IMG/VR virus record: IMGVR_UViG_3300025528_000004
Reading direction: 5' to 3' (one strand)
DNA length: 33,474 nucleotides
Origin: a virus
The position numbers and the translations under genes are program-made. Below the pieces are notes generated by a model. It ran no database searches. It was given only the letters and a program-made list of their open reading frames with translations, and was not told the origin of the DNA. Of the stretch, positions 1 to 31,345 are shown piece after piece. The first letter of the stretch is position 1, and each line of letters begins with the position of its first letter.

Positions 1-69
1 CCGCGCAGAAACTAAGGGAGGCGACGCGCAGGGGCGGTTAGCTCAGTTGGTAGAGCATCTCGCTTACAC
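1..69 (+). repeat. attL core: 69-bp direct repeat identical to 33406..33474
   Basis: Base-for-base identity by eye: ccgcgcagaaactaagggaggcgacgcgcaggggcggttagctcagttggtagagcatctcgcttacac. The repeat may extend left of the window. Confidence 0.9.
32..69 (+). pseudogene. Dead 5' fragment of tRNA-Val(TAC), acceptor 5' strand to anticodon loop
   Basis: GGGCGGT-TA-GCTC-AGTTGGTA-GAGC-A-TCTCG-CTTACAC. From position 70 the sequence is GGTGGCGCGAA, which cannot close the anticodon stem. Confidence 0.8.
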
Positions 70-6083: not shown

Positions 6084-6407
6084 TCAGCCGGAGCTGCTCA
6101 GCCTCGCGCTGGCGGCAGGCGGCTGCGGCACCGGCCTGTCGTCGTTTGCCGGAGGAGGAATGCGGTCATTCGCAGCGCGGTAGCTGGTGATCGGCAGCTG
6201 CACCTCGGGGTTGGGCATGGCGGACGGGCGGATGGTGCGCAGGATGACCATGCCCACCACAAACACGTGGCCGCAGGCCAGCTCTTCGCGGCAGTGGTAG
6301 TAGACCTCGCGGTAGGTCGTGTCGGACTTTCCTCCGGTGCGGGCGAATGCCTTGCTGCCGCAGTGCGGGCAGCGAATGTAGGGCAGGCGCGGGGCGGAGC
6401 GTTTCAT
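6084..6407 (-). CDS. ogr: Ogr/Delta-family zinc-finger late-gene activator
   Basis: MKRSAPRLPYIRCPHCGSKAFARTGGKSDTTYREVYYHCREELACGHVF has the same C-x2-C...C-x4-C pattern and context as P2 Ogr. Confidence 0.85.
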   Translation of the reverse strand: MKRSAPRLPYIRCPHCGSKAFARTGGKSDTTYREVYYHCREELACGHVFVVGMVILRTIRPSAMPNPEVQLPITSYRAANDRIPPPANDDRPVPQPPAASARLSSSG

Positions 6408-9591: not shown

Positions 9592-9885
9592 ATGGAAATG
9601 AGAGTGGCCTACCCTGCCATCATCGAGCGCGCCGAAGATGGTTACAGCGTGTTCTTTCCCGATCTTCCGGGGTGCGCGTCGGCGGGAAGCAGCTTCAATG
9701 AGGCGGAAAGAGTTGCTGAAGAAGCCTTATCTGCGCATCTTTCCTTGATGATCGAGCAGGGGGAAAAGGTGCCTGCACCCAGCCGCCTTTCTGATCTGCC
9801 GCATGACGCGGAGGTTGATGAAGCGGTCCGAGTGGTTGTGCACTGCACTGTCACGGCGCGGTCTCCATCCGCAGGTCGGTGGTGA
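9592..9885 (+). CDS. Orphan HicB-like (UPF0150) antitoxin-domain protein lacking a DNA-binding tail
   Basis: MEMRVAYPAIIERAEDGYSVFFPDLPGCASAGSSFNEAERVAEEALSAHLSLMIEQGEKVPAPS is a HicB N-domain. No hicA adjacent. The last 35 nt run antisense into the gene D 3' end. Confidence 0.7.
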   Translation: MEMRVAYPAIIERAEDGYSVFFPDLPGCASAGSSFNEAERVAEEALSAHLSLMIEQGEKVPAPSRLSDLPHDAEVDEAVRVVVHCTVTARSPSAGRW

Positions 9886-10861
9886 AGCCGCCGTTGCTGT
9901 CGAGGCGGTGGCTGACCTCGGTGATGAGCCATGTGGCAGCGTCAATCTCGGGCTTGAAGCCGCTGACCTTGACCCGCTGTTCGGGGTAGGCGTCGGGTCG
10001 GCCGAAGGCGAGCTGGAGATCAAGTGTGGCAGGCGAGCGCTTGAGGCGGTCGCGCTCGGCAAGGGCGGCGCGTTTGGCCTCGGCCTCGCTGGCGAAGGTG
10101 CGGCGCAGGCGCTTGGCTCCCTGTTTTTCCCCGACCGTCACCGATTGACGTTTGGCTTCGCCTGTGTCGTGCCAGTAGGCGGTAACGCCGGGTTGCTCGT
10201 CCTGCGTCTGGCGGGTCCAGCGGTGCCGGTCGCCATCCTTGCGGTGGAGAGAGAGCAGAGGGATGGGCTTGCCGCCCGGCGTTGTCCCGGCTCCCTTGCG
10301 CGTGAAGATCAGGCATCCGGCCTTGATGGTGGCAACGGCGTCATGCTCTGTCCCTAAGCGGCGGAGCAGGGCGGTGTCGCTCTCCCGGCTCTGGCAGAGT
10401 GTCGGCACGGCAACGGTGGCCAGTTCCGGCGCGATGCGGGCGGAGAGGCCATTGCGCCCGGCGATGTCGCTCAGCACTGCGCCCAGCGTCGTCTCGTGCC
10501 AGCTCTGCTCGCGGCGCAGGCGCAGGTCGCGGGTGAAGTCGGCCGAGCGGGCGCGCAGGGTGATGGTGTCCGGTGGACCGGAGTGCTCGATCTCATCCAC
10601 CTTGAAGCTGCCCTTGCCAACCAGCCCCGGCGTCACATCACGGCCCTGCTTCCAGCCGATCGCCAGCGTCAGCACCGCGCCGGGACGGGGCAGGGCAAGG
10701 CCGCCGTCGGTGTCTTCGAGTACAATGTCCAGCTGGTCCGCCTCCTCGTCGCGCTTCTCGGACAGGGAGAGCGAGACCAGGCGAGGGCGCAGCTTGCCGG
10801 TCAGATCCTGCCCTTCCAGCGTCACCCGCCAGTCGGGCACGTTGTGCCGGTATTCGGTCAT
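9851..10861 (-). CDS. D: Tail protein D (late control D family)
   Basis: 336 aa at the P2 position after U. N-terminus MTEYRHNVPDWRVTLEGQDLTGKLRPRLVSLSLSEKRDEEADQLDI is typical of gpD. Confidence 0.95.
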   Translation of the reverse strand: MTEYRHNVPDWRVTLEGQDLTGKLRPRLVSLSLSEKRDEEADQLDIVLEDTDGGLALPRPGAVLTLAIGWKQGRDVTPGLVGKGSFKVDEIEHSGPPDTITLRARSADFTRDLRLRREQSWHETTLGAVLSDIAGRNGLSARIAPELATVAVPTLCQSRESDTALLRRLGTEHDAVATIKAGCLIFTRKGAGTTPGGKPIPLLSLHRKDGDRHRWTRQTQDEQPGVTAYWHDTGEAKRQSVTVGEKQGAKRLRRTFASEAEAKRAALAERDRLKRSPATLDLQLAFGRPDAYPEQRVKVSGFKPEIDAATWLITEVSHRLDSNGGFTTDLRMETAP

Positions 10862-14286: not shown

Positions 14287-14799
14287 TCAGAAGAAGCCCA
14301 GGGCGTTTCGTCGCCCGGCCATCACATCGACGCCGTTGATGATCTGGACCATGTTGAGCACGTCGATTTCGAACTCGGTTCGGCCGTTCCAGATCTCCTT
14401 GTAGTAGACGCAGGAGGTCTTGACCTTGAACTCGCCGGGTTCGCCAGTCTTGGCCTCGCCGCGGTCGATTTCGTCATGACGGCCGCGCATGATGACCTCG
14501 ACGGTGTCATATGCGCCGGTGTCCTGCTGCTGGTACGCGCCGACAAAGCGCATGTAGACGCCGGCGATGCCGATGACGCCGAACTGCCGCAGGATGTCGC
14601 GCATCGGGCCGCCATAGGTGTGTTCCAGCTCGATGGCTTCGAGCCCCATGTCCAGCTTCACGGGGGCAAACATCCCGCCGCCGCGCCACTCTTCGGTCTT
14701 GCGGGTGAGCTTGGGCAGGGTGATGCTGGTGACCTGTCCCATGTAGGACTGGCCTTCGTTGAACAGCATCATGTCGGTGAGAATGCGGGGCAGTGCCAT
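14287..14799 (-). CDS. FII: Major tail tube protein FII
   Basis: MALPRILTDMMLFNEGQSYMGQVTSITLPKLTRKTEEWRGGGM is collinear with P2 FII (MALPRKLKLMNVFLNG..LPKLTRK). Confidence 0.95.
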   Translation of the reverse strand: MALPRILTDMMLFNEGQSYMGQVTSITLPKLTRKTEEWRGGGMFAPVKLDMGLEAIELEHTYGGPMRDILRQFGVIGIAGVYMRFVGAYQQQDTGAYDTVEVIMRGRHDEIDRGEAKTGEPGEFKVKTSCVYYKEIWNGRTEFEIDVLNMVQIINGVDVMAGRRNALGFF

Positions 14800-14829
14800 G
14801 CAGAGGCTCCTTCAAATGTGCGGCCGGGG

Positions 14830-15993
14830 TCAGGCGGCGATCTGGGCGGAGAAGTCGGCGAAGTAAGCGTCGGTGATCCGCTGGGCGAAGGTGAGGTCTT
14901 CAAGCGGCGGCGGCACGGTGTAGTCGTAGTCGATGCGCAGCTTGCCGGCCTTGAGGCTCTCGATGCTGTTTTGGGTCTCGTCGTACCAGGCGGTGGCGCC
15001 GAGGATGATGCCGCGGGCCTTCAGATCCCGGAAGAAGCCGTTGACGGTCTCGACGATGTCGCGGACCAGGCTGGGGGTCAGCGGCTTGTCGATGCCCCAC
15101 TCCATGCCGAGAGCGACGGTGTCGGCGATGAGCTGGCCAACGCGCACGGTGCTCTCGAACGCAAACAGCGGGTCGTTCGAACAGGTCCGGTTTCCCCAGA
15201 AGCGGTAGCCGGTGGAGGTGCGAACCAGAGCAGTGATCTCGGCGGCGTTGAGCAGGGCAGCTTCCGTGTCGCTGTTCTGCAAGTCCCACTGGATATCGCG
15301 GGTGAGGCCGACGACGCCCTCGACGGCGACGTTGGAGAGGGTCTTGTGCGGGCCGATCTCCTCGTCGATGCGAGCGCGCAGGCCCAGCGCCCGGGCGACG
15401 GCATGGCTGGTGGTGGTGATTGCGGACGTGGTGTCGAAGGCGAGAAAGTCCGGGAAGAGGAGCATCTGCTCGCGGGACGAGAAGTGGGAGCGATAGGAGA
15501 TCGCCTCCGAGATGCTGTCGCCGACCGCACGGGTGTAGGCAAAGCCGCGCAGCTTCTGGGCGATAACGGCGAGCGCGGCGGCGACCGGCTGGGTGTCGAG
15601 ACCCGGCGCGCCGATGATGCGGGGGCGCACGCCCAGCTGGCCTTCGGCGGCCAGCAGCGCCTGCATGCCGGTCTTCTGACCGTCGATCGTGTCGCCGATG
15701 ACGTTGGCGTTGGTCTCGTTGTCATCCTCGCCTTCAGGGACACGCACGACGACCACGACCGGCCGGGTCTGGTCAGCAATGGCGCGGAGACTGGCGCGCA
15801 GGGTGCCCGTGGCGCCGGCCTTGCCGATCGCGGTCTCGATGTCGGTGACGAGAGCCGGCCGGTTGAGTGGGAAGGTGGTGGCGTCAGCATCCGGCGCGGT
15901 GGCAACCAGGCCGATGATGGCGGTGGAAACGGGCGTCAGCGTGCGGGCGCCGTCGTTGATCTCGATGACGGTGATGCCGTGTTTGAAACTCAT
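14830..15993 (-). CDS. FI: Tail sheath protein FI
   Basis: 387 aa, MSFKHGITVIEINDGARTL.. is a typical sheath N-terminus. Sits immediately upstream of FII. Confidence 0.95.
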   Translation of the reverse strand: MSFKHGITVIEINDGARTLTPVSTAIIGLVATAPDADATTFPLNRPALVTDIETAIGKAGATGTLRASLRAIADQTRPVVVVVRVPEGEDDNETNANVIGDTIDGQKTGMQALLAAEGQLGVRPRIIGAPGLDTQPVAAALAVIAQKLRGFAYTRAVGDSISEAISYRSHFSSREQMLLFPDFLAFDTTSAITTTSHAVARALGLRARIDEEIGPHKTLSNVAVEGVVGLTRDIQWDLQNSDTEAALLNAAEITALVRTSTGYRFWGNRTCSNDPLFAFESTVRVGQLIADTVALGMEWGIDKPLTPSLVRDIVETVNGFFRDLKARGIILGATAWYDETQNSIESLKAGKLRIDYDYTVPPPLEDLTFAQRITDAYFADFSAQIAA

Positions 15994-16352
15994 GGCAGGC
16001 TCCTTGAGGACAGCGGAATGGTCAGGCGAACGAGGCTGGTGGGGGCGGGCATGTCGCGGCGTTGACCCTCGATGACGAGGGCGCGTGCGCTGGGCAGATC
16101 CCGACCTTCAAGCGTGACGCGTTGCAGGCGCAGGCGCGGCTCCCATCGGGAGAGGGCGACAGCTGTGGCCCCGTAGAGACGGAGTTTCAGCGCAGGCGTC
16201 AGCGGCTGGTCGATCAGATCGGGCAGCAGGGAGCCGTAGTCCCGCCGGGCCACCCGGGAGCCGATGGGGGTGGTCAGGATGTCGGCGACGGATTGCGCAA
16301 GATGCGCCTCGCCATCGATCGCAGCGCCCGTGTGGCGGTTCATGCCGGTCAT
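15990..16352 (-). CDS. W: Baseplate protein W (gp25/GPW family)
   Basis: HLAQSVADILTTPIGSRVARRDYGSLLPDLIDQP is the GPW_gp25 signature. Confidence 0.9.
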   Translation of the reverse strand: MTGMNRHTGAAIDGEAHLAQSVADILTTPIGSRVARRDYGSLLPDLIDQPLTPALKLRLYGATAVALSRWEPRLRLQRVTLEGRDLPSARALVIEGQRRDMPAPTSLVRLTIPLSSRSLP

Positions 16353-16900
16353 TCCGGGCCTCCGGTCTTGCCGGAGCCGGTCGCGACGCCGCCGTGCTTG
16401 TGGCTTTTCAGGCTGATGCCGTCGCCCACCACATCCTCGGCGCTGGTGATGGCGCCGGTGGCGGTCAGGGTGCCGTTAATGGTCACATCGCCCACGATGC
16501 TGAGGCCGCCGTCTGCCGTGATGTGCGCAGCGCCTCCCGGCGGCAGCAGAGCTTCCAGCCGGTGGGAGCCGTGGTGATAGCTGAGCTGCGCGCCGTCGGG
16601 GAATCGCACCAGGACAAGTTCGGGGTCGATCGATGGCGGGGGGAAGGAATTGGAGAACAGGCCGACCAGAACGAGCCCGCACAGCGTGTCGCCTTCCGGG
16701 CACAACAGCAGGCATTGCTCGCCAACCTGGGGCGGGGCCCAGACGGATACGCCGCCGGCGCGCGGCGTAAGCCACGGCAGCGGGCCGGTGGTGATTTCTC
16801 CCGTCGCGACGCGGCAGGTGGCATTTTCCGCATCCACCTCGGCGATGGTGCCGAGGCGCATCATGTCGCCGAGCTGTTGTTCGAGGTCGGAGATCATCAT
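16349..16900 (-). CDS. V: Baseplate spike/assembly protein V
   Basis: Start at MMISDLEQQLGDMMRLGTIAEVD. C-terminus GISLKSHKHGGVATGSGKTGGP is typical of gpV. The upstream TTG-initiated MWRGTLST extension is an artefact of the palindrome. Confidence 0.9.
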   Translation of the reverse strand: MMISDLEQQLGDMMRLGTIAEVDAENATCRVATGEITTGPLPWLTPRAGGVSVWAPPQVGEQCLLLCPEGDTLCGLVLVGLFSNSFPPPSIDPELVLVRFPDGAQLSYHHGSHRLEALLPPGGAAHITADGGLSIVGDVTINGTLTATGAITSAEDVVGDGISLKSHKHGGVATGSGKTGGPE

Positions 16901-16943
16901 GCGCCTGACAATGGCGCGGCCCGCGTGACGATGCGCGGGGGCG

Positions 16944-16970
16944 TTTGTGGAGAGAGTTCCTCTCCACAAA
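16944..16970. promoter_or_regulatory. Late-operon palindrome copy 1: TTTGTGGAGAG-agttc-CTCTCCACAAA (candidate Ogr-dependent control element)
   Basis: 11-bp arms, centre at 16957, 57 nt upstream of the V ATG (16900) and 14 nt downstream of the methyltransferase stop. Confidence 0.5.
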
Positions 16971-16984
16971 CAGCCGGTTGCCGG

Positions 16985-17827
16985 TCAGTCGTTTGCAGGC
17001 TGCCAGACGAATAGCGTGGGCACGTTGGTGATGATCAGCTCGCCGGCGGGCTTGGCGCGACCGACCGCGCTGGTTGAGATCGAGTAGCTGGTCTCGACCT
17101 CAATCATCGGAAAGGCGGCGAAGGTCTGGCGCACGCCCGGCATATCGTTGAGCGAGAGCAGAAACTTGCCCTTGATGCCTGCCAGCTGCTCCGCCAGCCG
17201 GGCGAAGTCCTCCCGGCTGAAGACGCCGGCGCCATAGTCGGTCTCGCAGTTCCAGTAAGGCGGGTCGAGGTAGAACAGTGTGCCCGGCCGGTCGTAGCGG
17301 GCAATGAACTCGGCATAGGGCAGGCGCTCGATGACGACGCCGGCCAGACGCTCATGCACGTCAGAGAGCATCGGCTCCAGCCTGGTCACATCGAAGCGGG
17401 CCGGGCTGCCGGGGTCGACGCCGAAGGTGCGCCCGGCGACCTTGCCGCCAAACGCCAACCGCTGAAGGTAGAGAAACCGGGCAGCGCGTTGCAGATCGGT
17501 CAGGGTTTCCGGGTCGACAGACATCAGCCGCTCGAACTCGGCGCGGCTGGTCAGCCGCCACTTCAGCATGTCGATGAAGTAAGGGTAGTGCTCCTGCAAC
17601 ACGCGGAAGAGGGTGACCACGTCGCCCGAGATGTCGTTGATGACTTCGGCCTTCGGCCGCGAGGTTCGGCGCAGGAAGATCCCGCCCATGCCGACGAAGG
17701 GCTCGGCGTAGGTGGTGTGTTCGATGCGCTCGATCAGCTGGCACAGGCGCTTGGCCAGATTGCGCTTGCCGCCGATGTAGCCGGCCACAGGTTTTGTGGA
17801 ACGTACAGAGAACAAATTGGATGGCAT
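16985..17827 (-). CDS. Orphan N6-adenine DNA methyltransferase (D12/Dam class)
   Basis: GYIGGKR, AEPFVGMGG (motif I) and FYLDPPYWN (DPPY motif IV). No endonuclease partner nearby. Confidence 0.9.
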   Translation of the reverse strand: MPSNLFSVRSTKPVAGYIGGKRNLAKRLCQLIERIEHTTYAEPFVGMGGIFLRRTSRPKAEVINDISGDVVTLFRVLQEHYPYFIDMLKWRLTSRAEFERLMSVDPETLTDLQRAARFLYLQRLAFGGKVAGRTFGVDPGSPARFDVTRLEPMLSDVHERLAGVVIERLPYAEFIARYDRPGTLFYLDPPYWNCETDYGAGVFSREDFARLAEQLAGIKGKFLLSLNDMPGVRQTFAAFPMIEVETSYSISTSAVGRAKPAGELIITNVPTLFVWQPAND

Positions 17828-17853
17828 TTTACAGTTGCAGCCTCTACAAATGC

Positions 17854-17896
17854 CCCCTCTGGTGAGGGGACTTCGGGCCCGGCCTGCGCCGGGCCC
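17854..17896 (-). terminator. Two GC hairpins between orf87 and the methyltransferase
   Basis: CCCCTC-tggt-GAGGGG (17854..17869) and GGGCCCGGC-ctgc-GCCGGGCCC (17875..17896). On the minus transcript the second is followed by GCATTTGT. No strong U tract. Confidence 0.35.
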
Positions 17897-17975
17897 CGGG
17901 TGCGAGTGGCCGCTCGCGGTTTGAGGTGCTGCACCACCTCGGCCCCCTTCGCCGGAGCGTCAGGGGCAATACGCT

Positions 17976-18239
17976 TTACGTTTCGGCTTCCGTCGGCTCT
18001 TCGGTTTCCTCATCGGCCGGAGGGGTGGAGGTGATGACGCCAAGTGCGATCTTGTGCTCCACGCCGCGCGCGACCTCCTGTACGCGAATGGCCGTGGCCG
18101 CGGCATCGTAGCCGCCAGCCTCATCGTGGCAGGCGTTGACCGAGCGGATGTGGACGATCTCTCCCTTGGTGAAGGTCACCGGAACCGTGCGGGTTGTAGC
18201 GTCATATGCGCCGATGGCGATGTGCAGATCAGCGGACAT
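17976..18239 (-). CDS. Hypothetical protein (87 aa, acidic C-terminus)
   Basis: Start at MSADLHIAIGAYDATTRT. The upstream part of the 169-aa track ORF looks off-frame. Overlaps the G stop by 11 nt. Confidence 0.5.
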   Translation of the reverse strand: MSADLHIAIGAYDATTRTVPVTFTKGEIVHIRSVNACHDEAGGYDAAATAIRVQEVARGVEHKIALGVITSTPPADEETEEPTEAET

Positions 18240-18636
18240 GGAGGTTCTCCTGGTTGGGTGGTGTCGGCCAGACCACGCTTGCGGGATCTTCGGCATGACG
18301 CTCGGGTAGGTCGCGCAGCGCCTGGCGGTAATCGGCCCATGCTGCGCGCTCTTCCGCCGAGAGCGGAGCATCGGGGAGCTGGGTGAAATCGGTGTCGCGC
18401 AGCAGACGGTCGCGCTTGCGCCGCAACGCGGCCAGCAGTTGGTCGGGATCGAGTGAAGGCTCCTGGGCGACGACCTGACCGTCAATGGCCGTGATGAAGA
18501 GCCCCCGGGCCTGCGCTTCCAGCAGCGAGCCGTGTTGATCCGCCGTTAGCGGAATCGCGTCGGCAGGGATGTCTGCCGGGGCATGGATGGCGTCATCGTA
18601 AAAGCCGCGGGTTGTGGGGGAGAAGAACTTTGCCAT
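18229..18636 (-). CDS. G: Tail fibre assembly chaperone (gpG-like)
   Basis: MAKFFSPTTRGFYDD... and ..RDRLLRDTDFTQLPDAPLSAEERAAWADYRQALRDLPE are typical tail-fibre-assembly motifs. Directly follows H. Confidence 0.8.
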   Translation of the reverse strand: MAKFFSPTTRGFYDDAIHAPADIPADAIPLTADQHGSLLEAQARGLFITAIDGQVVAQEPSLDPDQLLAALRRKRDRLLRDTDFTQLPDAPLSAEERAAWADYRQALRDLPERHAEDPASVVWPTPPNQENLHVR

Positions 18637-18637
18637 G

Positions 18638-20581
18638 TCAGTACCCGAATGCGATCCAGTAGGCGGTGGTGTTGTTGTCGTTGGCGTTGATCGACTGGAA
18701 GCCGGTCGTGGTGACTGAATTGCTTACAACCGTCGGCGTGTTTCCCTCCGCGCCATAGGACGTGTCGCCGGAACCGCTGGTCACAACTCCCATGCAAAGG
18801 GACGGAAACGCCAGCGGGAAGGAGATCGAGATCGTCGTGTTGGCGTACTGGGTATAGCGGCCCGCTTGAATGATCATGCCATTCGGCAGTTTGCAGTAGC
18901 CGGAGGCCGACTTGCTGGCGACAAAATCAGCCAGCTTGGCAAAGGCGCTGGCGTGCAGGCCGTCGAGCAGGTCAGCATCCAGTCCAGAACCCGAGCCGTC
19001 ATTGCCCGCGTGCCAAGCCCGGTTGCCGGATGCCGCTCCGATATAGAGTTGCGCGCCGTCCCAATACAGCAACCACTTTGCGTCGCTTTGCCGATACCAC
19101 CCCCCGATACCAGTGGGCGTGAACATGCTTGCGATATGCGATGTCGAAGTGCCGTGGAGAATCCCGTAATAATTCCCCTTGAGGACGTCGAGCGCATAGG
19201 CCGCGTAACCATGGGCTGTGGTGGACCGGACAAAACTGGAGGCGTGCAAGCCGTCGAGCAGGTCAGCGTCGAGTCCCGAGCCCGCTCCATCGTTGCCCGC
19301 ATCCCATACCGTGTATGACCCTCGCGTGATGATGCCGGTGCTGTCATTGATGGTCACGATGGTGGCGGTATTGGTCCGGTTGCGGAAGACGTAGCCATTT
19401 GCGCCGCCCGCGTACAACCATGTGGCATCCCCAGCCTGGCGGATGATCGGAACGCCATTGGAGTACAGGGCAGTCCCGTCGGCCATGTAGATATTTCCGC
19501 CAGCGGAAATCGTGCCGGTAGTAGAAATGCTCCCAGTGAAGTCAGCGCCTGAGAGATGGGCAAAGGCGCTGGCGTGCAGGCCGTCGAGCAGGTCAGCATC
19601 CAGCCCCGAGCCTGCGCCGTCATTGCCCGCATCCCAGACCCGGTTTCCTGCCCGGAAAATGGCCGTGTCCGTGAAGGAGACGTAGGTTGAAGCCCCGGAG
19701 GGATCCGTGATTCTGAGCCCGGTGCCTCGCGCGATCCATTCGCCGCTCTGGGTTACGATAAATGCAGTTCCTGCTGGCGTTCCGGCACGCGTCAGGCCAG
19801 CGCCGCTCATGCTGAGTTTGCCCCCGACCGATACGTTGCCCGTGAAGTCAGCGCCTGACAGTTGAGCGAACGCGCTGGCGTGCAGGCCGTCGAGCAGATC
19901 CGCGTCGAGCCCCGAGCCGTGGCCTTCATCCTTGAGCGCGGCGGACCTGATCTCCAGTGCGGCCCGGAGGGCGGCCGCGCTTGCTGCGGTCAGGATGGAT
20001 TTGACGAACAACGACGGCGCACCCGAGCCGAAGCGGTCATTCAGCCAGCTGGTGACGGCTGCTTTCAGCCCTTTGGGCGTGATCGCGCGGGAGGCGTCGG
20101 TTCCAGAGGTGGTTTCGCTCTCGGTTGCCAGCTCGACCACGCCCTGCCGTTCGGTGGTGGCGGGAGGGTTGAGGAAGCTGGTGTCGCCGAAGGTGATCTG
20201 GGTTGCATCGATGTCTGCGAAGATGACGTCGATGGCCAGCAGTAGCATGGCCTGCGCCGACTTCTCCATGATCGGGTTGGCCTGACTGTAAACGCCGAAC
20301 AGCGTGCCATCGGCAAGGTACAGGCCGAACGAGCGCACGGTATAAACGTCCGCGCTTTCGTCGCGCACCGTCACATGGATGGTGTCGTCCGCCACTGCCT
20401 CTCCGGCGATGGTGGTGATCCGCTTGATTTCGCCGGGCAGGCTGGTGATGCCAGGCGACGGCGTGAAGGCGGTCGCCGAGACGCCAACCGAGGCCATCAG
20501 CACCGGATTGGTGCCGGTGTTGGCTGCATTGACGAGCGCCGCGCGTCCGGCATTGGTGATGGTCAGGATCAGCCCACTCAT
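18638..20581 (-). CDS. H: Tail fibre protein H
   Basis: 647 aa with a conserved P2-H-like N-terminal domain (MSGLILTITNAGRAALVNA...RQGVVELATESE..AITPKGL). Repeat-containing shaft and a distinct C-terminal tip. Confidence 0.9.
   Translation of the reverse strand: MSGLILTITNAGRAALVNAANTGTNPVLMASVGVSATAFTPSPGITSLPGEIKRITTIAGEAVADDTIHVTVRDESADVYTVRSFGLYLADGTLFGVYSQANPIMEKSAQAMLLLAIDVIFADIDATQITFGDTSFLNPPATTERQGVVELATESETTSGTDASRAITPKGLKAAVTSWLNDRFGSGAPSLFVKSILTAASAAALRAALEIRSAALKDEGHGSGLDADLLDGLHASAFAQLSGADFTGNVSVGGKLSMSGAGLTRAGTPAGTAFIVTQSGEWIARGTGLRITDPSGASTYVSFTDTAIFRAGNRVWDAGNDGAGSGLDADLLDGLHASAFAHLSGADFTGSISTTGTISAGGNIYMADGTALYSNGVPIIRQAGDATWLYAGGANGYVFRNRTNTATIVTINDSTGIITRGSYTVWDAGNDGAGSGLDADLLDGLHASSFVRSTTAHGYAAYALDVLKGNYYGILHGTSTSHIASMFTPTGIGGWYRQSDAKWLLYWDGAQLYIGAASGNRAWHAGNDGSGSGLDADLLDGLHASAFAKLADFVASKSASGYCKLPNGMIIQAGRYTQYANTTISISFPLAFPSLCMGVVTSGSGDTSYGAEGNTPTVVSNSVTTTGFQSINANDNNTTAYWIAFGY
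18947..19918 (-). repeat. Four intragenic repeats in H encoding GSGLDADLLDGLHAS
   Basis: Motif at aa 222-236, 324-338, 434-448 and 531-545 (DNA 19874..19918, 19568..19612, 19238..19282, 18947..18991). Near-identical DNA, e.g. ggcgtgcaggccgtcgagcaggtcagcatc. Confidence 0.85.
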
Positions 20582-20672
20582 GCCGCCCCCCTCCGGCCGA
20601 CCAGGACAAGGGCAAGACCAAGAGCGGCAAGGAGAAGTTCAGGCGGGGCAGGGGGCAGGAGCATGGGCGATC

Positions 20673-21215
20673 TCAGGCGGCACAACGGAGGCGGGCGGAG
20701 ATGACAGGGCGGGCGGCGGCCAGAACGCCGACGCGGGCTGCTGCGGCAAAGCCCTGGGTGAAGGTGAAGTGACTGCGCACCGGCTTGGTGCGGGCAACTT
20801 CGGCAATGACGGCATCGACGAAGGCGGCGCTGGCGGGCGCATTGACGCTGCCGAGCGTCAGCACCAGTTCAAAGGTGTACGGATCGCCGGCCGGCGTTTT
20901 CTGCCACCATTCGCGAATGGCGACCTGGCCGCCGAACGATTCGATGACGGCGCGCACGCTGGCCGTCGTGCCCTTTTGCCGGGCGATCTCAAGGGCGCGG
21001 CGCACGCGCTCGCGCTTGACGGCCTCGGGCCAGTCAGAGGACCAGCTGTCGAGCGAGAGCGCCCAGGCGAGCCACGGCAGAAGGTCCACCGGGCAGATGT
21101 CCGGGTTCCACAGCTTGCGCAGGTTGGCGTCAATGTCGGCAATCCGCGCCGTGGCGGCGGCCAGCGCGCGTTCGAATGGTGTGGCATTGGGCGGGAGCAG
21201 GGACGCGGTCATCAT
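20673..21215 (-). CDS. I: Baseplate/tail protein I
   Basis: LLPPNATPFERALAAA...LWNPDICPVDLLPWLAWALSLDSW is the gpI signature. Confidence 0.9.
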   Translation of the reverse strand: MMTASLLPPNATPFERALAAATARIADIDANLRKLWNPDICPVDLLPWLAWALSLDSWSSDWPEAVKRERVRRALEIARQKGTTASVRAVIESFGGQVAIREWWQKTPAGDPYTFELVLTLGSVNAPASAAFVDAVIAEVARTKPVRSHFTFTQGFAAAARVGVLAAARPVISARLRCAA

Positions 21216-22105
21216 TCACCCGTCCCTCCATAGGTGATGCTCAGGCTCGTGCAGTATGGCGCCTGGTTGCGGTTGATGAGGATGTCGGCGCTCGGCTGGG
21301 TGAGAACGACACGGTGAACGCCCTCAACGTGCAGCGCCGCGTGGATGCCGGAGATCGTGATGTCACGTCCCAGCCGGTGGCTGTTGGTGATGTACTCCTG
21401 AGTGCGGCGCTGAGCCTCGGCCATGACGACGGAGCCGTCGGGACCGGCAAAGGTGGTGATGGTCGCCGCGATTGCATAGGGCACGATCTGTGCCGACTGG
21501 ACAGTGACGTGGTCCGTCAGCGGCCTGACGCGATCGGATGACACGTGCGAGGCCACTGCTGCGATCAGCTCGGGCGATGCAGTGCCATCGCCGGTGCGTG
21601 ACAGGATCGAGACGACCACTTCGCCGGGGGAGGGGCTGGTCGCGCTGGCATCGAGCACGTCGGGATGCGCGGAGAGTGCATGGTAGATGTAGGCCCCTTC
21701 AGGCCCGGCCACAGAGTAGCCCTCCGGGGCCAACACCATGCGTCGCCGGAGATCCTCGTCGCTCTCCATCGTCGGCGGGATGCCCAGTTCCGGGTCGCCC
21801 GGGTCGAGGGTAAAGCGGGTGACGCCGAGCAGGGCGGCCAGATTGTCAAGGTCGCTGCCGGCGGCATAGGCGGGCATTACCGCGCGGGCAGCATCGTTGA
21901 TCCGTTGGCGGAGCAGGACTTCGCGGTAGGCGACAACCTGAAGGATCTTGGTGGCAGGGTCGCTTTCAAGCGGCTGGAAATCAGGCAGGAGCAGACGGAG
22001 CGAGGCGATCAGGTCTGCCAGGATCGTCTCATAGTCGAGTGCCTCCACCACCTGCGGAGCGGGCAGGCGGGACAGGTCGACCGCGGTGAAGGTTGCATCT
22101 GCCAT
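21212..22105 (-). CDS. J: Baseplate assembly protein J
   Basis: Start at MADATFTAVDLSRLPAPQVVEALDYETILADL (gpJ-like). The upstream MWRGALST extension is a palindrome artefact. Confidence 0.9.
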   Translation of the reverse strand: MADATFTAVDLSRLPAPQVVEALDYETILADLIASLRLLLPDFQPLESDPATKILQVVAYREVLLRQRINDAARAVMPAYAAGSDLDNLAALLGVTRFTLDPGDPELGIPPTMESDEDLRRRMVLAPEGYSVAGPEGAYIYHALSAHPDVLDASATSPSPGEVVVSILSRTGDGTASPELIAAVASHVSSDRVRPLTDHVTVQSAQIVPYAIAATITTFAGPDGSVVMAEAQRRTQEYITNSHRLGRDITISGIHAALHVEGVHRVVLTQPSADILINRNQAPYCTSLSITYGGTGE

Positions 22106-22147
22106 GCCGCCTTTGTCGGCGGCAGCAAAGGAATAGCGCCAGAGGGA

Positions 22148-22176
22148 GCTTGTGGAGAGAGCCCCTCTCCACAAGC
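22148..22176. promoter_or_regulatory. Late-operon palindrome copy 2: GCTTGTGGAGAG-agccc-CTCTCCACAAGC
   Basis: 12-bp arms, centre at 22162, 57 nt upstream of the J ATG (22105) and 7 nt downstream of the hicB stop. Confidence 0.5.
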
Positions 22177-22183
22177 TGCCGGA

Positions 22184-22588
22184 TCAGGAGGCGTACTGGC
22201 GAGCGGCCTCGGCAATAAATGCTGAGCGCGTCAGGCCTCTCATGTGAGCAGCCTTGTCGATCAGGTCGAGAGTGTTCTCATCAATACTCAGGTTGACGCG
22301 CTTGGTGCGGCCAAACGGAACAACGGCAGGCAACATGATGGTCGTTGCTGCCTCTGCGAAATCGTCCACCAACTCAGGGTCGGCACGCAATTCCGCCAGC
22401 GAACGGGCGCGCGGCAACTCCCCGCCGGCATCGATCAGGCTTGCCAGATGGTGCGTCAGAACCTGACGGGCGACCATGACCGCTTCGTCGAAATCTTCCG
22501 TTTCAGCGTGAGCCGTGAAGCCGAGAACGTCCGGCGCGGTGAAGCTGTAGCCTCCTGCGTCGGTGAATACAAAGGTGAGATAGTGCAT
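22184..22588 (-). CDS. hicB: HicB antitoxin (HicB N-domain + RHH/CopG C-domain)
   Basis: Start at MHYLTFVFTDAGGYSFTAPDVLGF behind AGGAGGAAA. C-terminus KRVNLSIDENTLDLIDKAAHMRGLTRSAFIAEAARQY is ribbon-helix-helix. Confidence 0.9.
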   Translation of the reverse strand: MHYLTFVFTDAGGYSFTAPDVLGFTAHAETEDFDEAVMVARQVLTHHLASLIDAGGELPRARSLAELRADPELVDDFAEAATTIMLPAVVPFGRTKRVNLSIDENTLDLIDKAAHMRGLTRSAFIAEAARQYAS

Positions 22589-22662
22589 CGTGCTTTCCTC
22601 CTGAATGACACGATATGCCGGGCTAGGCGACAGCGGAGCTGAACGGAAAGGAGGGTGGCGCT

Positions 22663-22848
22663 TCAACGCCACCCAGCTGCCTTCTCGATCGCTCTTTTCA
22701 ACCCCTTCGGAAGATCTTTTCTTGGGTGTGGCACCGTGATCAGCTTGACCTCCTGAGGATGCTTGAAGGTCCGGTGGCTGCCCTTCTGTGAGACCTCAAT
22801 CCAGCCTTCTCGAAGAAGCCGCCGTATGATCTCGTCGCTGTCGCCCAT
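22663..22848 (-). CDS. hicA: HicA mRNA-interferase toxin
   Basis: 61 aa. IIRRLLREGWIEVSQKGSHRTFKHPQEVKLITVPHPRKDLPKGLKRAI is the HicA/YcfA signature. Confidence 0.9.
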   Translation of the reverse strand: MGDSDEIIRRLLREGWIEVSQKGSHRTFKHPQEVKLITVPHPRKDLPKGLKRAIEKAAGWR

Positions 22849-22868
22849 TCCGCCTCCCTGTCGTTTGT

Positions 22869-22905
22869 TGTGTAATTATATACACATTTTTCGAGGAAAA
22901 TGCAA
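22869..22905 (-). promoter_or_regulatory. hicAB promoter with overlapping operator-like inverted repeat
   Basis: Minus strand has TTGCAT (22905..22900), a 17-nt spacer, then TATATA (22882..22877). The inverted repeat TGTGTA-N6-TACACA (22869..22886) covers the -10. GGGAGG SD precedes the hicA ATG. The region is AT-rich. Confidence 0.5.
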
Positions 22906-22934
22906 GCGTCATGTGTATTTATTTGCGCAATTCG

Positions 22935-23630
22935 TCAGGTTGCGTTTGCTGAGAGGTGCGCATAGACCATGTCGAGTATTGCCTGCCGGTCTGCGTCGCT
23001 GATCCCGACCAAAGGGCGGCGTGGATAGGTGAGGGGCTGGGCCTTGCGCGCCGGGCGATCCCGCAGGCCCTCATGGTGAATGCGGGCGATTTCCGCGGCG
23101 CGGCCGGTGAAGCCGACCCAGAAGCTATGATCATCCTCCCCAAAGCGCAGAAAGCGGGCTGTGGCAAGACGGCGGAACATGGCCTTGCGGCGCAGGTTGC
23201 CGCGACGCCGCAGGCGGCCTCCTGTCTTGTTGCGGTATTCCTCGTCAACCGGCAGCCACTTGATGATCTTGTCATGGAAGAAGCTGCGGATGCCGCCTGC
23301 CTCGATGTCAAAGCCGGTCATCATGTAGGAGTCGCCGGTTTTCTCGAGGGCATACTGGCGCAGGATTACCTTCCGGGCTGGGCCGGAGCCGCCCGAGGGG
23401 TACAGGAAGCAGACAGTTTGATTGACGGTGCGCGCGGGTTCGCGCGGGCGGCGCGGCTCGAAGGCGGTGCCGTCCGGAGCCTTCTGCGCCGCGATGCGCG
23501 CCCGGTTGCGTGCGGCCATCTCGCGGGCCATGCGGCGCAGCAGCGAGCGCCGTTGGCCAGCGGAGAGCTGGCGAATCAGGCCTCCGGCGATGCGCTCGAT
23601 CTCGACCAGGTCGTCGGTGTCATCGCTCAC
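22935..23630 (-). CDS. S: Tail completion / virion morphogenesis protein S (with internal insertion of about 80 aa)
   Basis: N-terminus ..LSAGQRRSLLRRMAREMAARNRARIAAQKAPDGTAFEPR and C-terminus ..HHEGLRDRPARKAQPLTYPRRPLVGISDAD are collinear with P2 gpS. 231 aa against about 150 aa recalled for P2. Confidence 0.8.
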   Translation of the reverse strand: MSDDTDDLVEIERIAGGLIRQLSAGQRRSLLRRMAREMAARNRARIAAQKAPDGTAFEPRRPREPARTVNQTVCFLYPSGGSGPARKVILRQYALEKTGDSYMMTGFDIEAGGIRSFFHDKIIKWLPVDEEYRNKTGGRLRRRGNLRRKAMFRRLATARFLRFGEDDHSFWVGFTGRAAEIARIHHEGLRDRPARKAQPLTYPRRPLVGISDADRQAILDMVYAHLSANAT

Positions 23631-24151
23631 GCGTCGACCTCGGGCGGTATGCCTGGCTTGAGATCGGCGTCAGGGTTCTTGGATTGGGCGAGCAGTTCGG
23701 TCCCGCCGTAGCATTGCAACAGCCACGAGGCGCGGATGCCGGGAAAGGCGTCGGCCGGTGGCGGGGCCGGACGGCTGATATCTACCCCGCTGCCGTCTTC
23801 GCGTGGCGTGACGATGACCGGCTCGGTCAGGTCGAGCTGGAACAGCAGGTCGACGCGTTTGCGGTCGAGAATCTCGGCCTCGTAGCGGAACGGCTGGCTG
23901 TCGTCGCGTTTGAGGAGGTCCGGCTGCTCCAGTTCGATCCATGCGAGCAGTGGCACCACAATCTGGTCCGGACTGCCCGCGTAATCGGTCAGCAGCACAG
24001 AGAGGGTGTAGCTGTAGGCAAACGAGAGGCTTTCGCCGCTCCGCGCCCTGACGCTTCCGGCGTCGACGTAGATCTGCAGCTGGTCCGGGTTCTGCTTCAA
24101 CTCCGGTAAGCAGGCCTCGAGCCAGCTGCGCAAACTGTCAGCCTTGCGCAT
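23627..24151 (-). CDS. R: Tail completion protein R
   Basis: Start at MRKADSLRSWLEACLPELKQNPDQLQIYVDAGS, collinear with P2 gpR (MLKPDSLRRAL..NPDMLRIFVDNGS). Confidence 0.85.
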   Translation of the reverse strand: MRKADSLRSWLEACLPELKQNPDQLQIYVDAGSVRARSGESLSFAYSYTLSVLLTDYAGSPDQIVVPLLAWIELEQPDLLKRDDSQPFRYEAEILDRKRVDLLFQLDLTEPVIVTPREDGSGVDISRPAPPPADAFPGIRASWLLQCYGGTELLAQSKNPDADLKPGIPPEVDA

Positions 24152-24437
24152 CGCAGCCGTCCTTGTCGTGCCAGGCAATCAGCCGCTCGAGCTGGTCAAC
24201 GGCTTCAGCATAGCCTTGCGCCAGCCTGATCGCGGCTTCGCGGACAGCCTTCGGCATCGTGGCGACGGCGTCTTCCGGGAAGCCTGCCGGTCGCTGTGGG
24301 CAGGCGAGCAGTTCGGCGGGCGGTGTGTCGCGGATCTCGACGGCGACCGCTGTCGGCGCCGGGTCAGCCGCGCGGTGCGCGCAGGCCTGCAACGCGATTG
24401 AGAGCAGCAAACCAGCTGCCAGTGACCTGATCATCAT
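24138..24437 (-). CDS. o-spanin (outer-membrane lipoprotein, Rz1-like)
   Basis: MMIRSLAAGLLLSIALQAC gives a signal peptide plus lipobox LQAC. Its 5' 74 nt overlap the i-spanin 3' end in another frame. Confidence 0.7.
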   Translation of the reverse strand: MMIRSLAAGLLLSIALQACAHRAADPAPTAVAVEIRDTPPAELLACPQRPAGFPEDAVATMPKAVREAAIRLAQGYAEAVDQLERLIAWHDKDGCDAQG

Positions 24438-25483: not shown

Positions 25484-25821
25484 TTGTCCCTCCCGATGCG
25501 GGCCTTCAGCAGGGCAGGCAGCTCGGCCGCCAGATCGCTCGCGGCGCGGATAAAACCGGGCGCGGCTTCAAAGGCGATCATCGCGATGACGAACCCGCAG
25601 GCCTGCGCGACAAACGGCGTGAAGTCGAAGATCTCGGCGGCGGCTCGGGTCACGTAGTAGCTGACACAGATGCCGACGATCCACTGGACCAGGCGCTGCT
25701 TCCACGGCAGGCCGGGCCGCCAAGCCTGGGCGACCGCCGAGCCGATGGCGGCGGGGGTCAGGGCGGCAGCAGCGGCGCGGGTCTGCTCCCACAGTTCATT
25801 CAGCAGGTCAGTCAGGGTCAT
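25480..25821 (-). CDS. Putative holin
   Basis: 113 aa with 2-3 hydrophobic segments (WIVGICVSYYV, FVAQACGFVIAMIAF) and a charged C-terminus. ATGA overlap with the endolysin start. Confidence 0.55.
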   Translation of the reverse strand: MTLTDLLNELWEQTRAAAAALTPAAIGSAVAQAWRPGLPWKQRLVQWIVGICVSYYVTRAAAEIFDFTPFVAQACGFVIAMIAFEAAPGFIRAASDLAAELPALLKARIGRDK

Positions 25822-25824
25822 ATC

Positions 25825-28516: not shown

Positions 28517-29386
28517 TCAGCAGTCGGTGACGATGCCGCCGGCGCCGCCCGTCACCAGGCGGCGATGCGGGGCCGGAGCCTCGGTTTGCGCCAGCTGCTG
28601 GGTCAGCCGGGTCAGGTCGGCCCGCAGCGATGCGATCTCCTGCTTCGGGCCGGCCAGCGCCTGCTCGATGACGGCGCTGAAGCTGGCCGACATGCGCTCG
28701 GCGAGTGCAGCCATGTTGTCGTTGGCCGGAGGTTGGGACGGGATCGGCGCAACAGGTTGCGCCGGGGCTTCCTGCTGTTGCGGCGCGGGGCGAGCGCCCA
28801 GCTCCGAGAACAACGACGCGAAGAAGGCCTTGATGGCCGTCGCAAGGTCGGAGGTCGCCGCCTCGTCCTCAAAGGCGACGGCGGTCTCCTGAGCGGCCGT
28901 GAACAGATTGCCGGGATCAGACTTGCGGGCGTCCCACATCGGCTTGAGCGCGGAGAACTGAAGGGCTTCGGTGCCGAGGCTGGCCGGGTTGTCGGTGAGG
29001 GCGAGACCGACCAGGCCCGCCTTGCCGGTGTTGGCGAAGTTGGGGGCAACCTCGATGCTGGTGAAGATCTTCTGCCCCTTTTCGACCAGGCGGACCATCT
29101 GGTCGTTGGCCTCGATCCGCGCCAGCAGCGCCAGACGTTTCTCCTTCTTGCCGCCGATCTCCAGTTCGATCTCCTCGGTCTTGAGTGCGACGACCGAGCC
29201 GTAGGCATTGAACGGCGGTTCCGGGCTGAAGCCCTTGATGTGCTCGCAGTTGACGCGGGCCGTGTAGGTTGTCGGGTTGTAGGTCGCGGCCATCTGTTCG
29301 ATCCAGCCGCGCTCGATGACGCGGCCGTCGGTCGTGGCGCCTTCAACAGCGATCCGGGTCCAACGGGTCGTGCGGGTCTTTGCCAT
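28517..29386 (-). CDS. O: Capsid scaffolding protein O
   Basis: Start at MAKTRTTRWTRIAVEGATTDGRVIERGWIEQMAATYNP (gpO-like). The upstream MWRGPLST extension is a palindrome artefact. Confidence 0.9.
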   Translation of the reverse strand: MAKTRTTRWTRIAVEGATTDGRVIERGWIEQMAATYNPTTYTARVNCEHIKGFSPEPPFNAYGSVVALKTEEIELEIGGKKEKRLALLARIEANDQMVRLVEKGQKIFTSIEVAPNFANTGKAGLVGLALTDNPASLGTEALQFSALKPMWDARKSDPGNLFTAAQETAVAFEDEAATSDLATAIKAFFASLFSELGARPAPQQQEAPAQPVAPIPSQPPANDNMAALAERMSASFSAVIEQALAGPKQEIASLRADLTRLTQQLAQTEAPAPHRRLVTGGAGGIVTDC

Positions 29387-29476
29387 AGGGGAGGGCAGCC
29401 TTTTCGTTGCGAATAGCGGTGCGTTCGTGCGCACAGCAGCAGGCCGCAGATGCGGCGGTCTGCTCAAGGTCGTGCG

Positions 29477-29499
29477 TGTGGAGAGCGGGCCTCTCCACA
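29477..29499. promoter_or_regulatory. Late-operon palindrome copy 3: TGTGGAGAG-cgggc-CTCTCCACA, in the divergent O/P control region
   Basis: 9-bp arms, centre at 29488. It lies 49 nt (ATG 29537) or 58 nt (ATG 29546) upstream of P, and 102 nt upstream of the O ATG (29386). Confidence 0.5.
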
Positions 29500-29536
29500 A
29501 ACTGCCTCTCCGGCCGGTGCGTGTCGGGCGGCAAAC

Positions 29537-31345
29537 ATGCCGGTCATGACCGTGCCAACCACAAACCTGTCTCTGTCGACGACGCCGTTTGATGCACGCC
29601 GCCTGGCGCGCAGCCTGTACTGGCGGGGGTGGTCGGTGACGCAGATTGCCGAAGAGCTCCAGCTCAAGCGCCCGACCGTCGAAAGCTGGAAGCAGCGCGA
29701 CAGGTGGGATGACGCGCCCTCAATCCGCAAGCTGGAGGACTGCCTTGAAGTGCGCTTCCAGGCACTGGTGCTGAAGGAGAAGAAGACCGGCGCGGACTTC
29801 AAGGAGATCGACCTTCTCGGCCGCCAGCTGGCCCAGCTGGCGCGCATTCGCCGGTATGAAGCGCCGGGCGGCCACGAGGGCGACCTGAACGAGAAGGTCG
29901 CCAACCGCAACAAGGGGGCGCGCCGGAAGCCCAAACGCAACCACTTCACCGCCGAGCAGGCGGCGAAGCTGCGCGAGATCTTCGAGAGCCAGCTGTTCGG
30001 CTATCAGGAGACGTGGCGGGACAGCTCGAACCTGCGCACGCGCATGATCCTGAAGTCCCGCCAGATCGGCGCGACCTACTACTTCTCTTTCGAGGCGCTG
30101 CTCGACGCCATCGAGACCGGACGCAACCAGATCTTCCTTTCCGCCTCACGCGCCCAGGCGCTTCAGTTCCGCAGCTACATCGTGTCGTTCGCCAAGCTGG
30201 TCGGCGTCGATCTGACCGGAGACCCCATGATGATCACGTCGGAGCTGGTGGGCGAGGAACAGCCGGCGGCCGAGCTGCACTTCCTCGGCACCAACTACCG
30301 CACGGCGCAGGGTCGGCACGGCAACTTCTACTTCGACGAGTTCTTCTGGGTGCATGGCTTCGAGGAGCTGAACAAGGTCGCCTCAGGCATGGCCATGCAC
30401 AAGAAATGGCGGAAAACCTACTTCTCGACCCCCTCGACCGTCGCGCATGAGGCCTATCCCTACTGGACGGGCGAGCGGCACAATCGCCGCCGCAAGAAGG
30501 GCAATCGCATCGAGATCGACGTGAGCCATGCGGCGCTGAAAGACGGCCGCCTGTGCGAGGACGGGATCTGGCGCCACATCGTCACTATCGAGGATGCGGA
30601 AAGGGGCGGCTGCGATCTCTTCGACATCGAGGAGCTGCGCCTGGAGTATGCGCCCGACGAGTTCGCCAATCTGCTGATGTGCGAGTTCGTTGACGACAGC
30701 CTTTCGGCCTTCAGCTTCAACGATCTAGTCAAGTGTGGCGTCGATAGCCTGGTCGAGTGGCCAGACTTCAACCCGGACGCGGCTCGGCCCTTCGGCAACC
30801 GGCCCGTGTGGGCCGGGTATGACCCGCAGGAGAGCGCCGAGGGCGATAACGCCGCGCTCGTCATCGCAGCGCCGCCTGCCGAACCCGGCGGCACCTTCCG
30901 CCTGCTGGAGCGCCACCAGCTCCGCGGTCTCGATTTCGAGCAACAGGACGGGTTCATCCGGGCGACGCTCAGCCGGTACAACTGCACCTATCTCGGGATC
31001 GACGCCACGGGCGTCGGCGCTGCCGTCTACCAGCTGGTGAGCAAGTGGTGCCCGCGGGCAGTGCGCATCGACTACTCGCTCGATGTCAAGGCGCAAATGG
31101 TCCTGAAGGCCCGCAACGTGATCAGCCGCGGGCGACTCGCGTTCGATGCCGGGTGGGTCGACCTGATCGGCGCTTTTCTCTCAATCAAGAAGGTCCTGAC
31201 CGCCTCGGGTCGCAACATGACCTTCAAGGCCGGGCGCGGGGCCGAGACCAGTCACGCCGATATCGCCTGGGCGACAATGCACATTCTCATGAACGAGCCG
31301 CTCGACGGCAAACCCAAGGCCACCGGCCGTATGGAGATCTTCTGA
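29537..31345 (+). CDS. P: Terminase large (ATPase) subunit P
   Basis: MPVMTVPTTNLSLSTTPFDARRLARSLYWRGWSVTQIAEELQLKRPTVESWKQRDRWDD is a typical gpP N-terminus. An alternative ATG lies at 29546. Confidence 0.95.
   Translation: MPVMTVPTTNLSLSTTPFDARRLARSLYWRGWSVTQIAEELQLKRPTVESWKQRDRWDDAPSIRKLEDCLEVRFQALVLKEKKTGADFKEIDLLGRQLAQLARIRRYEAPGGHEGDLNEKVANRNKGARRKPKRNHFTAEQAAKLREIFESQLFGYQETWRDSSNLRTRMILKSRQIGATYYFSFEALLDAIETGRNQIFLSASRAQALQFRSYIVSFAKLVGVDLTGDPMMITSELVGEEQPAAELHFLGTNYRTAQGRHGNFYFDEFFWVHGFEELNKVASGMAMHKKWRKTYFSTPSTVAHEAYPYWTGERHNRRRKKGNRIEIDVSHAALKDGRLCEDGIWRHIVTIEDAERGGCDLFDIEELRLEYAPDEFANLLMCEFVDDSLSAFSFNDLVKCGVDSLVEWPDFNPDAARPFGNRPVWAGYDPQESAEGDNAALVIAAPPAEPGGTFRLLERHQLRGLDFEQQDGFIRATLSRYNCTYLGIDATGVGAAVYQLVSKWCPRAVRIDYSLDVKAQMVLKARNVISRGRLAFDAGWVDLIGAFLSIKKVLTASGRNMTFKAGRGAETSHADIAWATMHILMNEPLDGKPKATGRMEIF

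Follow-up and report, generated by a model that had tools for sequence, protein, structure and literature searches.

Palindromes upstream of the late operons of a P2-like alphaproteobacterial prophage as probable binding sites of its Ogr/Delta-type activator

Three long, perfect palindromes located upstream of the late operons of a P2-like prophage are probably (at a rough probability of 0.8) binding sites of the prophage's own Ogr/Delta-type late activator, each with a late transcription start some 56 nt downstream. We infer binding by the Ogr homologue, the positions of the transcription starts and activation itself from the conservation of these elements and from their analogy with the late promoters of P2. 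The palindromes would most likely constitute a further instance of the already described class of Ogr/Delta-dependent late promoters, and the understanding of P2-type late control itself is unchanged. Of interest are the length and perfection of the palindromes, a core common to the whole family and framed by flanks particular to each phage, and the leaderless messages predicted at the head of three of the four late operons. For annotation, the assignment fixes the operon structure and the starts of genes V (16900), J (22105) and P (29546) in an uncharacterised prophage family, and removes three spurious TTG-extended ORFs. These ORFs (16349..16969, 21212..22174 and 28517..29500, all on the minus strand) begin at the TTG of TTGTGGAGAG, and had been correctly identified as spurious in the initial annotation.

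The window (that is, the complete 33.5-kb stretch of DNA analysed) is a P2-like prophage carrying the late genes Q, P, O, N..S, J, I, H, G, V, W, FI, FII, E, T, U and D. Its G+C content is about 65% and its host is an alphaproteobacterium of roughly 65% G+C; a near-identity search of the phage collection returned no close annotated relative. On the minus strand, from high to low coordinates, the observed order is O, N together with head and lysis genes, R, S, HicA/HicB, palindrome 2, J, I, H, G, methyltransferase, palindrome 1 and V..D. The early region encodes an integrase, two CI-like repressors, a GapR-like protein and a Toprim primase, and the gene for the Ogr homologue, whose presence in the element had been pointed out in the initial annotation, adjoins the primase gene in an early/replication operon. 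The genes and cargo on which the analysis draws are as follows:

29546..31345, plus strand: gene P, terminase large subunit (Pfam Terminase_6N, Terminase_6C and Terminase_5), with the portal gene Q next
28517..29386, minus strand: gene O, capsid scaffold protein (Pfam Phage_GPO, E = 5e-83), heading the O..S operon
22184-22848, minus strand: HicA/HicB toxin-antitoxin pair, cargo directly upstream of palindrome 2
21212..22105, minus strand: gene J, baseplate wedge protein (PHROG match, E = 1.6e-85), heading the J-I-H-G operon
16985-17827, minus strand: DNA methyltransferase, cargo directly upstream of palindrome 1
16349..16900, minus strand: gene V, baseplate spike/assembly protein (PHROG baseplate assembly protein), heading the V-W-FI-FII-E-T-U-D operon
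9851-10861, minus strand: gene D, end of the V..D operon
6084..6407, minus strand: Ogr/Delta-family zinc-finger protein of 107 aa (Pfam PF04606, E = 3.7e-13, 49.6 bits against a cut-off of 26.3; cysteine motif CX2CX22CX5C)

Exactly three matches to the pattern TGTGGAGAG-N5-CTCTCCACA were detected in the 33.5-kb window (16946-16968, 22151-22173 and 29477-29499), and these remained the only sites when up to three mismatches were allowed. The chance expectation for the pattern is 0.01, and none of 100 shuffles gave three matches. Extended to the full length of their perfect arms, the three palindromes are:

16943..16971, centre 16957: palindrome 1, perfect arms of 12 bp, predicted to be the activator site for the promoter of the V operon
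22147..22177, centre 22162: palindrome 2, perfect arms of 13 bp, predicted to be the activator site for the promoter of the J operon
29477..29499, centre 29488: palindrome 3, with 9-bp perfect arms, single predicted activator site for the divergent P (plus strand) and O (minus strand)

The core of palindrome 1, TGGAGAG-N5-CTCTCCA, spans positions 16948-16966. The initial annotation had reported the three copies to lie at a fixed distance from late genes, and the distances bear this out: the centres of palindromes 1 and 2 are each 57 nt from the minus-strand ATGs of V (16900) and J (22105), and the centre of palindrome 3 is 49 and 58 nt from the two plus-strand ATGs of P (29537 and 29546) and 102 nt from the minus-strand ATG of O. 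A half-site-like TTGTAGAGG without a symmetric partner is also present at 17840-17848 (minus strand), 13-21 nt upstream of the methyltransferase ATG (17827), and may be due to chance.

Loci from related prophages were gathered by homology to the terminase P, J, D and Ogr proteins. For the Ogr locus search a 13-sequence alignment proved too divergent and a 4-sequence alignment was used, and a single-protein search with V returned no relatives. Perfect palindromes were found at the same three places in dozens of related prophages, most of which carry one just upstream of P. The J and V copies present the same arms as the P copy of the same phage, and orthologues of the V site are present in several relatives (e.g. 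L110, L111 and L340). The arms themselves vary among phages, including TCTTGTAGAAA-N3-TTTCTACAAGA, CATATGGAGAGG-N3-CCTCTCCATATG, CATCGGGCGAGA-N3-TCTCGCCCGATG and CATTTGGAC-N8-GTCCAAATG, with a half-site identity of 0.95 within loci versus 0.66 between loci. The spacing is constant regardless of the arm sequence, with centre-to-ATG distances of 56-60 nt for J (mode 57, n=28), 55.5-58 nt for V (n=10) and 56-60.5 nt for P (mode 59-60, n=25), and the sequences of the spacers are unconserved. One comparison of orthologous J sites gave 56-57.5 nt. From the centre to the O ATG, most relatives have 102-114 nt and a few have 86-98 nt.

When 54 odd-length sites are anchored on their centres, they define a family core of the form TGKAGAR-N5-YTCTMCA, equivalent to TGK-N13-MCA, with the following composition in the left half-site:

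Position -9: T in 46/54
Position -8: G in 53/54
Position -7: G or T (28 G and 26 T, of 54)
Position -6: A in 49/54
Position -5: G in 53/54
Position -4: A in 54/54
Position -3: G or A (40 G and 14 A, of 54)

The window palindrome fits this core exactly (TGGAGAG-N5-CTCTCCA), and the conservation lies in the sequence, beyond mere pairing. The outer TGT...ACA of the window palindromes, which the initial annotation had read as a TGT-N17-ACA register, falls two bases beyond the core, within the variable flank; this register is probably incidental, the centre-anchored family core taking the form TGG-N13-CCA in the window. The J copy of the closest relative, TGTGTAGAG-N5-CTCTACACA, contains an inner TGT-N13-ACA, and across relatives the dyads conform to TGT-N13-ACA or TGG-N13-CCA, with even-length dyads presenting N12 or N14.

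The only conserved block between the palindrome and the ATG is a -10-like hexamer at centre+44..50. Among 10 V sites, the bases C44, A45, T46, k47, G48, T49 and C50 are each present in 9-10 of the 10; the 25 P sites show A46 (22/25) and T50 (21/25) in a TAnnnT pattern (e.g. TAGGCT), and the centre-anchored profile of 28 J sites reads G45, A46, C47, A48, T49 and G50. The corresponding elements in the window, together with the one on the O side of palindrome 3, are:

16908..16913, minus strand: CATTGT at centre+44..49, the -10-like hexamer assigned to the predicted promoter of V, ending 7 nt before the V ATG
22112..22117, minus strand: GACAAA at centre+45..50, the -10-like block assigned to the predicted promoter of J, weaker than the other two
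29533..29538, plus strand: AAACAT at centre+45..50, the -10-like hexamer assigned to the predicted promoter of P, overlapping the first ATG (29537)
29462..29467, minus strand: TTGAGC, a -35-like element assigned to the predicted promoter of O (O side, centre+21..26), with GCCTGC 17 nt later (29439-29444)

The -10-like hexamers are weak, that of J most of all. A sigma-70 consensus scan of positions 16000-30500 found no promoter, and no -35-like conservation was seen on the J, V and P sides. The location of the hexamer at centre+44..50 points to a transcription start at approximately centre+56/57, placing the centre of the palindrome at about -56. An alternative class II geometry (site at -41.5, leader of 15 nt) was also considered and rejected, since no conservation was found at centre+28..38 and centre+44..50 is conserved.

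Strong Shine-Dalgarno sequences (GGAGG or AAGGAG) precede the internal late genes W, FI, FII, E, T, I and H, and the regions upstream of V, J and P present none, or AGG only. With their ATGs 57-58 nt from the palindrome centres and no Shine-Dalgarno sequence, V, J and P are predicted to have leaderless messages, which would start at, or within about 3 nt of, the ATG. For P, the start is most likely the second ATG (29546), given that the first (29537) falls inside the -10-like hexamer. On the opposite side of palindrome 3, about 20 relatives present a CCTTGAGAAG block at the same O-side position as the window, with a -35-like TTGAGA at centre+21..26, followed 17 nt later by CCCTkT at centre+44..49, and GAGGA or AAGGGA precedes the distant O ATG. 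Transcription of O is accordingly predicted to initiate at the mirror-image position, giving a leader of about 46 nt. The O-side block as a whole, CCTTGAGAAG-N~10-TTCGGTCCCTkTTC, is conserved at 29439-29470 (minus strand) in the window and in the P/O intergenic regions of loci L032-L100. Its spacing fits a -35-like TTGAGA with an unusual CCCTkT hexamer after it, and the second part of the block, more strongly conserved than a plain -10 would be, may serve some other purpose.

The palindromes could instead function as RNA hairpins, acting as terminators, in 3'-end protection or as 5'-UTR structures for a phage RNA-binding or antitermination factor, a reading that we deem unlikely. If transcribed, they are predicted to fold stably (-24.9, -26.5 and -19 to -21 kcal/mol, with z-scores of -2.8 to -5.4), and their arms stay perfectly complementary as the flanks change between phages. 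In addition, palindromes 1 and 2 begin 10-15 nt past the methyltransferase and HicB stop codons, and the terminator scan found no terminator-like hairpins between the operons other than the palindromes. The same scan, however, calls none of the palindromes, all three copies lack a T tract after the palindrome, and searches of the window found no Rfam family or tRNA. Furthermore, palindrome 3 and its orthologues are located between divergent genes, where no transcript ends, but their arms are as long as those at the operon junctions (medians 12 vs 12-13, Mann-Whitney p = 0.76), which indicates that the palindrome of about 27 bp is a property of the site and not of a terminator. The bases G-8, A-6, G-5 and A-4 are conserved as sequence in 49-54 of the 54 sites, although a hairpin does not need them, the distance to the -10-like block and to the ATG is fixed, and the P2 precedent is a DNA site. 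The 5'-UTR hairpin that the initial annotation had offered as an alternative is unlikely, and the palindromes may have a second role in RNA.

As activator sites, the palindromes find their closest point of reference in P2 (AF063097), where pO and pP have a single activator binding site (3057-3087) whose centre lies 56 and 55 nt, respectively, from the P (3016) and O (3127) starts. The pV site of P2 (10239-10266) is centred 55.5 nt from a start (10308) that coincides with the first base of the V CDS, the pF site (17555-17583) is associated with starts at 17626-17628, and the annotated activator sites are 28-31 bp long (AF063097). The inverted repeats to which Ogr binds have their centre at about -55, and the protein makes contact with the RNA polymerase alpha subunit (PMC3152322); the P2 consensus and the Ogr motif have been described as TGT-N12-ACA and CX2CX22CX4C (PMC3931495). 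The work on P2 late promoters by Christie and Calendar (1985) and by Julien and Calendar (1995) is referred to here as cited in PMC3931495 and PMC3152322.

Like P2, the window encodes a small Ogr/Delta-family activator with a Cys4 zinc finger, and it has an inverted repeat before each late operon and one site for the divergent P and O. The P2 distance from activator site to start is 55-56 nt, and the centre-to-ATG distances of 57, 57 and 58 nt in the window match the P2 pV case, in which the start falls on the ATG. The P2 pV region also contains TTCTACA, which is the right half-site of the prophage family, and the inter-operon gaps that hold the nonessential orf30 and fun(Z) in P2 hold HicAB and the methyltransferase in the window. 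The two systems differ in that P2 presents partial dyads whereas the window presents perfect palindromes of 23-31 bp, and in that the TGG-N13-CCA of the window (TGK-N13-MCA in the family) departs from the literal TGT-N12-ACA consensus of P2, although the TGK triplet, at about 7-9 nt from the centre, agrees with P2 to within 0.5-1 bp. In P2 the operons are V-W-J-I-H-G and FI..D, the latter with pF; in the window they are J-I-H-G and V-W-FI..D, and pF is missing. Only V is leaderless in P2, whereas J and P are also predicted to be so in the window, and the P2 Ogr has a CX4C motif and is encoded after D, whereas the window homologue has CX5C and is encoded in the early/replication operon.

A second comparison is provided by Stenotrophomonas phage Smp131, for which the promoters PP'/PO' (with a shared site), PJ' and PV', the operons JIHG and V..D and an Ogr-like protein have been predicted or described (PMC3931495). 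Smp131 shares with the window the rearranged JIHG / V..D order and the use of one TGT-N12-ACA-like site in both orientations for P and O; unlike the window, it has a gammaproteobacterial host and imperfect dyads, and its sites are predicted only. The site coordinates in the Smp131 paper do not match its GenBank record, and its spacing is comparable with that of the window only loosely. The initial annotation had proposed Ogr-type late-promoter dyads before the late operons O..S, J.. and V..D, in addition to P and Q, and this proposal draws support from the Ogr_Delta gene, the relatives, the -10-like block and the P2/Smp131 layout. Its operon count needs to be amended: the P site is common to O, so that three palindromes would serve four operons.

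Ogr-family activators, which further include coliphage 186 B, P4 Delta, PSP3 Pag and phiR73 Delta, activate late promoters via upstream dyads and have partly different promoter specificities; these four proteins cross-activate P2-type TGT-N12-ACA sites. In the mechanism that we propose, the Ogr homologue of the window, presumably as a symmetric oligomer, would bind the 19-bp core TGGAGAG-N5-CTCTCCA and its phage-specific flanks, and the bound activator would recruit the host RNA polymerase to promoters that have a weak -10-like hexamer and no usable -35. Palindrome 1 would thereby drive V-W-FI-FII-E-T-U-D and palindrome 2 would drive J-I-H-G and whatever comes after, with palindrome 3 acting bidirectionally on P-Q to one side and on O..S to the other. 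The C-terminal tail of the Ogr homologue is proline-rich, contains ANDD/ANDR motifs and is common to relatives. The inclusion of 186 B in the family is also made by way of citation in the Smp131 paper (PMC3931495, ref. 39).

An Ogr_Delta-type gene was identified in every site-bearing relative long enough to check. In the contigs yielding both the activator gene and sites, each site class is accompanied by its own Ogr variant, reproducibly over independent contigs, as seen in the zinc-finger region:

Site class TGGAGAG: I[RC]CPHCG..AFAR..GK...TYRE.YYHC (the window and five contigs)
Site class ATATGGAGAGG: VDCP.CG.RAFAR.IGK..LLYREVYYHC.D.RDCGHEFVVGISALRT (four contigs)
Site class CATCGGGCGAGA: ASCPACG.GAKARRVGKVALTYREIYYHCRDELGCGHVFVAELTAIRT (six contigs)
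Site class TGTAGAG / GGTAGAG: ...R[ST]S.[QK][VI]TP..RE... (four contigs)

Site classes CATTTGTAGAGG, CATTTGGAC and CATTTCGCT likewise have an Ogr variant of their own each, and the prophage family comprises at least eight site classes with different flanks (about nine independent). The link between Ogr variant and site class agrees with co-evolution of protein and site, and is to be taken as supporting evidence rather than proof, because shared ancestry confounds it and the TGTAGAG core is found with two distant Ogr clades.

The putative activator sites of the window extend the P2 late-control pattern (a site at about -55, a common pO/pP site and a leaderless V) to Sphingomonadales-type hosts, and their 19-bp core and perfect symmetry provide a sharper definition of the site than that available from E. 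coli phages. The phage-specific flanks and the distinct Ogr variants, moreover, hint at specificity classes. It is conceivable, and we advance it here as a tentative proposal that is more likely to fail than to hold, that the Ogr activators and palindromic sites of alphaproteobacterial P2-like prophages have split into insulated specificity classes, sharing TGKAGAR and differing at -7 and in the -10..-13 flanks, with each phage switching on no late genes but its own and with leaderless V, J and P operons. If true, the insulated classes would constitute a natural set of orthogonal activator/promoter pairs, as well as a system for leaderless initiation.

The palindromes could also be DNA sites for another phage protein, such as a CI-like repressor, the GapR-like protein or a late repressor, which we regard as quite improbable. 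The case for Ogr is one of analogy and of a phylogenetically confounded correlation, and the element also encodes two repressors with HTH and S24 domains and a GapR-like DNA-binding protein. Operators of the CI type, however, would be expected at early promoters near the repressor genes and not before each late operon. The position of the palindromes, their spacing of about -56 and their TGK...MCA core all match the Ogr system, the heptamer recurs as TTCTACA in the P2 pV region, and the presence of an Ogr_Delta-type gene in every checkable relative with sites likewise argues for the Ogr homologue as the protein that would bind them.

The exact pattern TGTGGAGAG-N5-CTCTCCACA was detected in 23 stretches of 596 Gb of representative genomes, approximately the chance level for 18 specified bases. 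The sole relative among these 23 matches is a Pedomonas (Sphingomonadales) MAG, in which a 40-kb contig with two copies carries a homologous prophage that shares about 79% identity with the window. In the metagenome collection the pattern was found in 38 stretches, three of which are clearly homologous prophage fragments with the J, V or O/P site; one other match, L332, has weak similarity to the window only, and the remaining matches are unrelated single copies in DNA of 33-62% G+C. No contig with multiple non-phage copies was found in the metagenome scan. Across the genome, viral and metagenome scans, the motif is therefore not a dispersed host repeat and recurs only in homologous prophages, which speaks for a prophage-restricted element, one of the two outcomes that the initial annotation had considered.

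Nucleotide homology between the window and its closest relative, L111, breaks exactly at the palindrome edges, where the relative holds different cargo. In L111, a block of about 57 bp with the V-site palindrome is duplicated (14405-14453 and 15510-15538), the two blocks flanking a 279-aa cargo ORF (14581-15420), and the upstream copy has decayed to TTTATGGAGAG-N5-CTCTTCACAAA. This suggests that the cargo of L111 inserted between the activator site and the -10, duplicating the site. Repeated palindromes in intergenic DNA, homology that breaks at their edges and a relative with a duplicate copy flanking a cargo gene might also evoke a REP-like repeat dispersed in the host, or a miniature mobile element, sitting in the prophage by chance, but the chance-level single matches in the genome scan (apart from one homologous prophage), the three homologous prophage fragments and otherwise unrelated single matches in the metagenome scan, and the orthologous, position-fixed sites of many relatives render this reading extremely improbable and refute the REP-like alternative that had been entertained initially.

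Other features of the prophage were observed outside its late promoters. Two tandem CI-like repressor genes lie at 7313-7972 and 8019-8696 on the plus strand, each encoding HTH_3 and Peptidase_S24 domains. The C repressor of P2 is non-cleavable, and the present element therefore appears to be SOS-inducible, like phage 186. The protein with a GapR-like DNA-binding domain (2910-3302, minus strand; PF10073, E = 1e-32) is a homologue of an alphaproteobacterial nucleoid-associated protein, and a second, solitary HicB-like antitoxin ORF (9592-9885, plus strand; PF15919, E = 8e-20) is located just beyond D, on the opposite strand. Finally, the tail-fibre gene H (18638-20581) contains internal repeats of about 60-90 bp at 18940-19920, which match each other and the repeats in the fibre gene of a relative, suggesting a repetitive fibre shaft.
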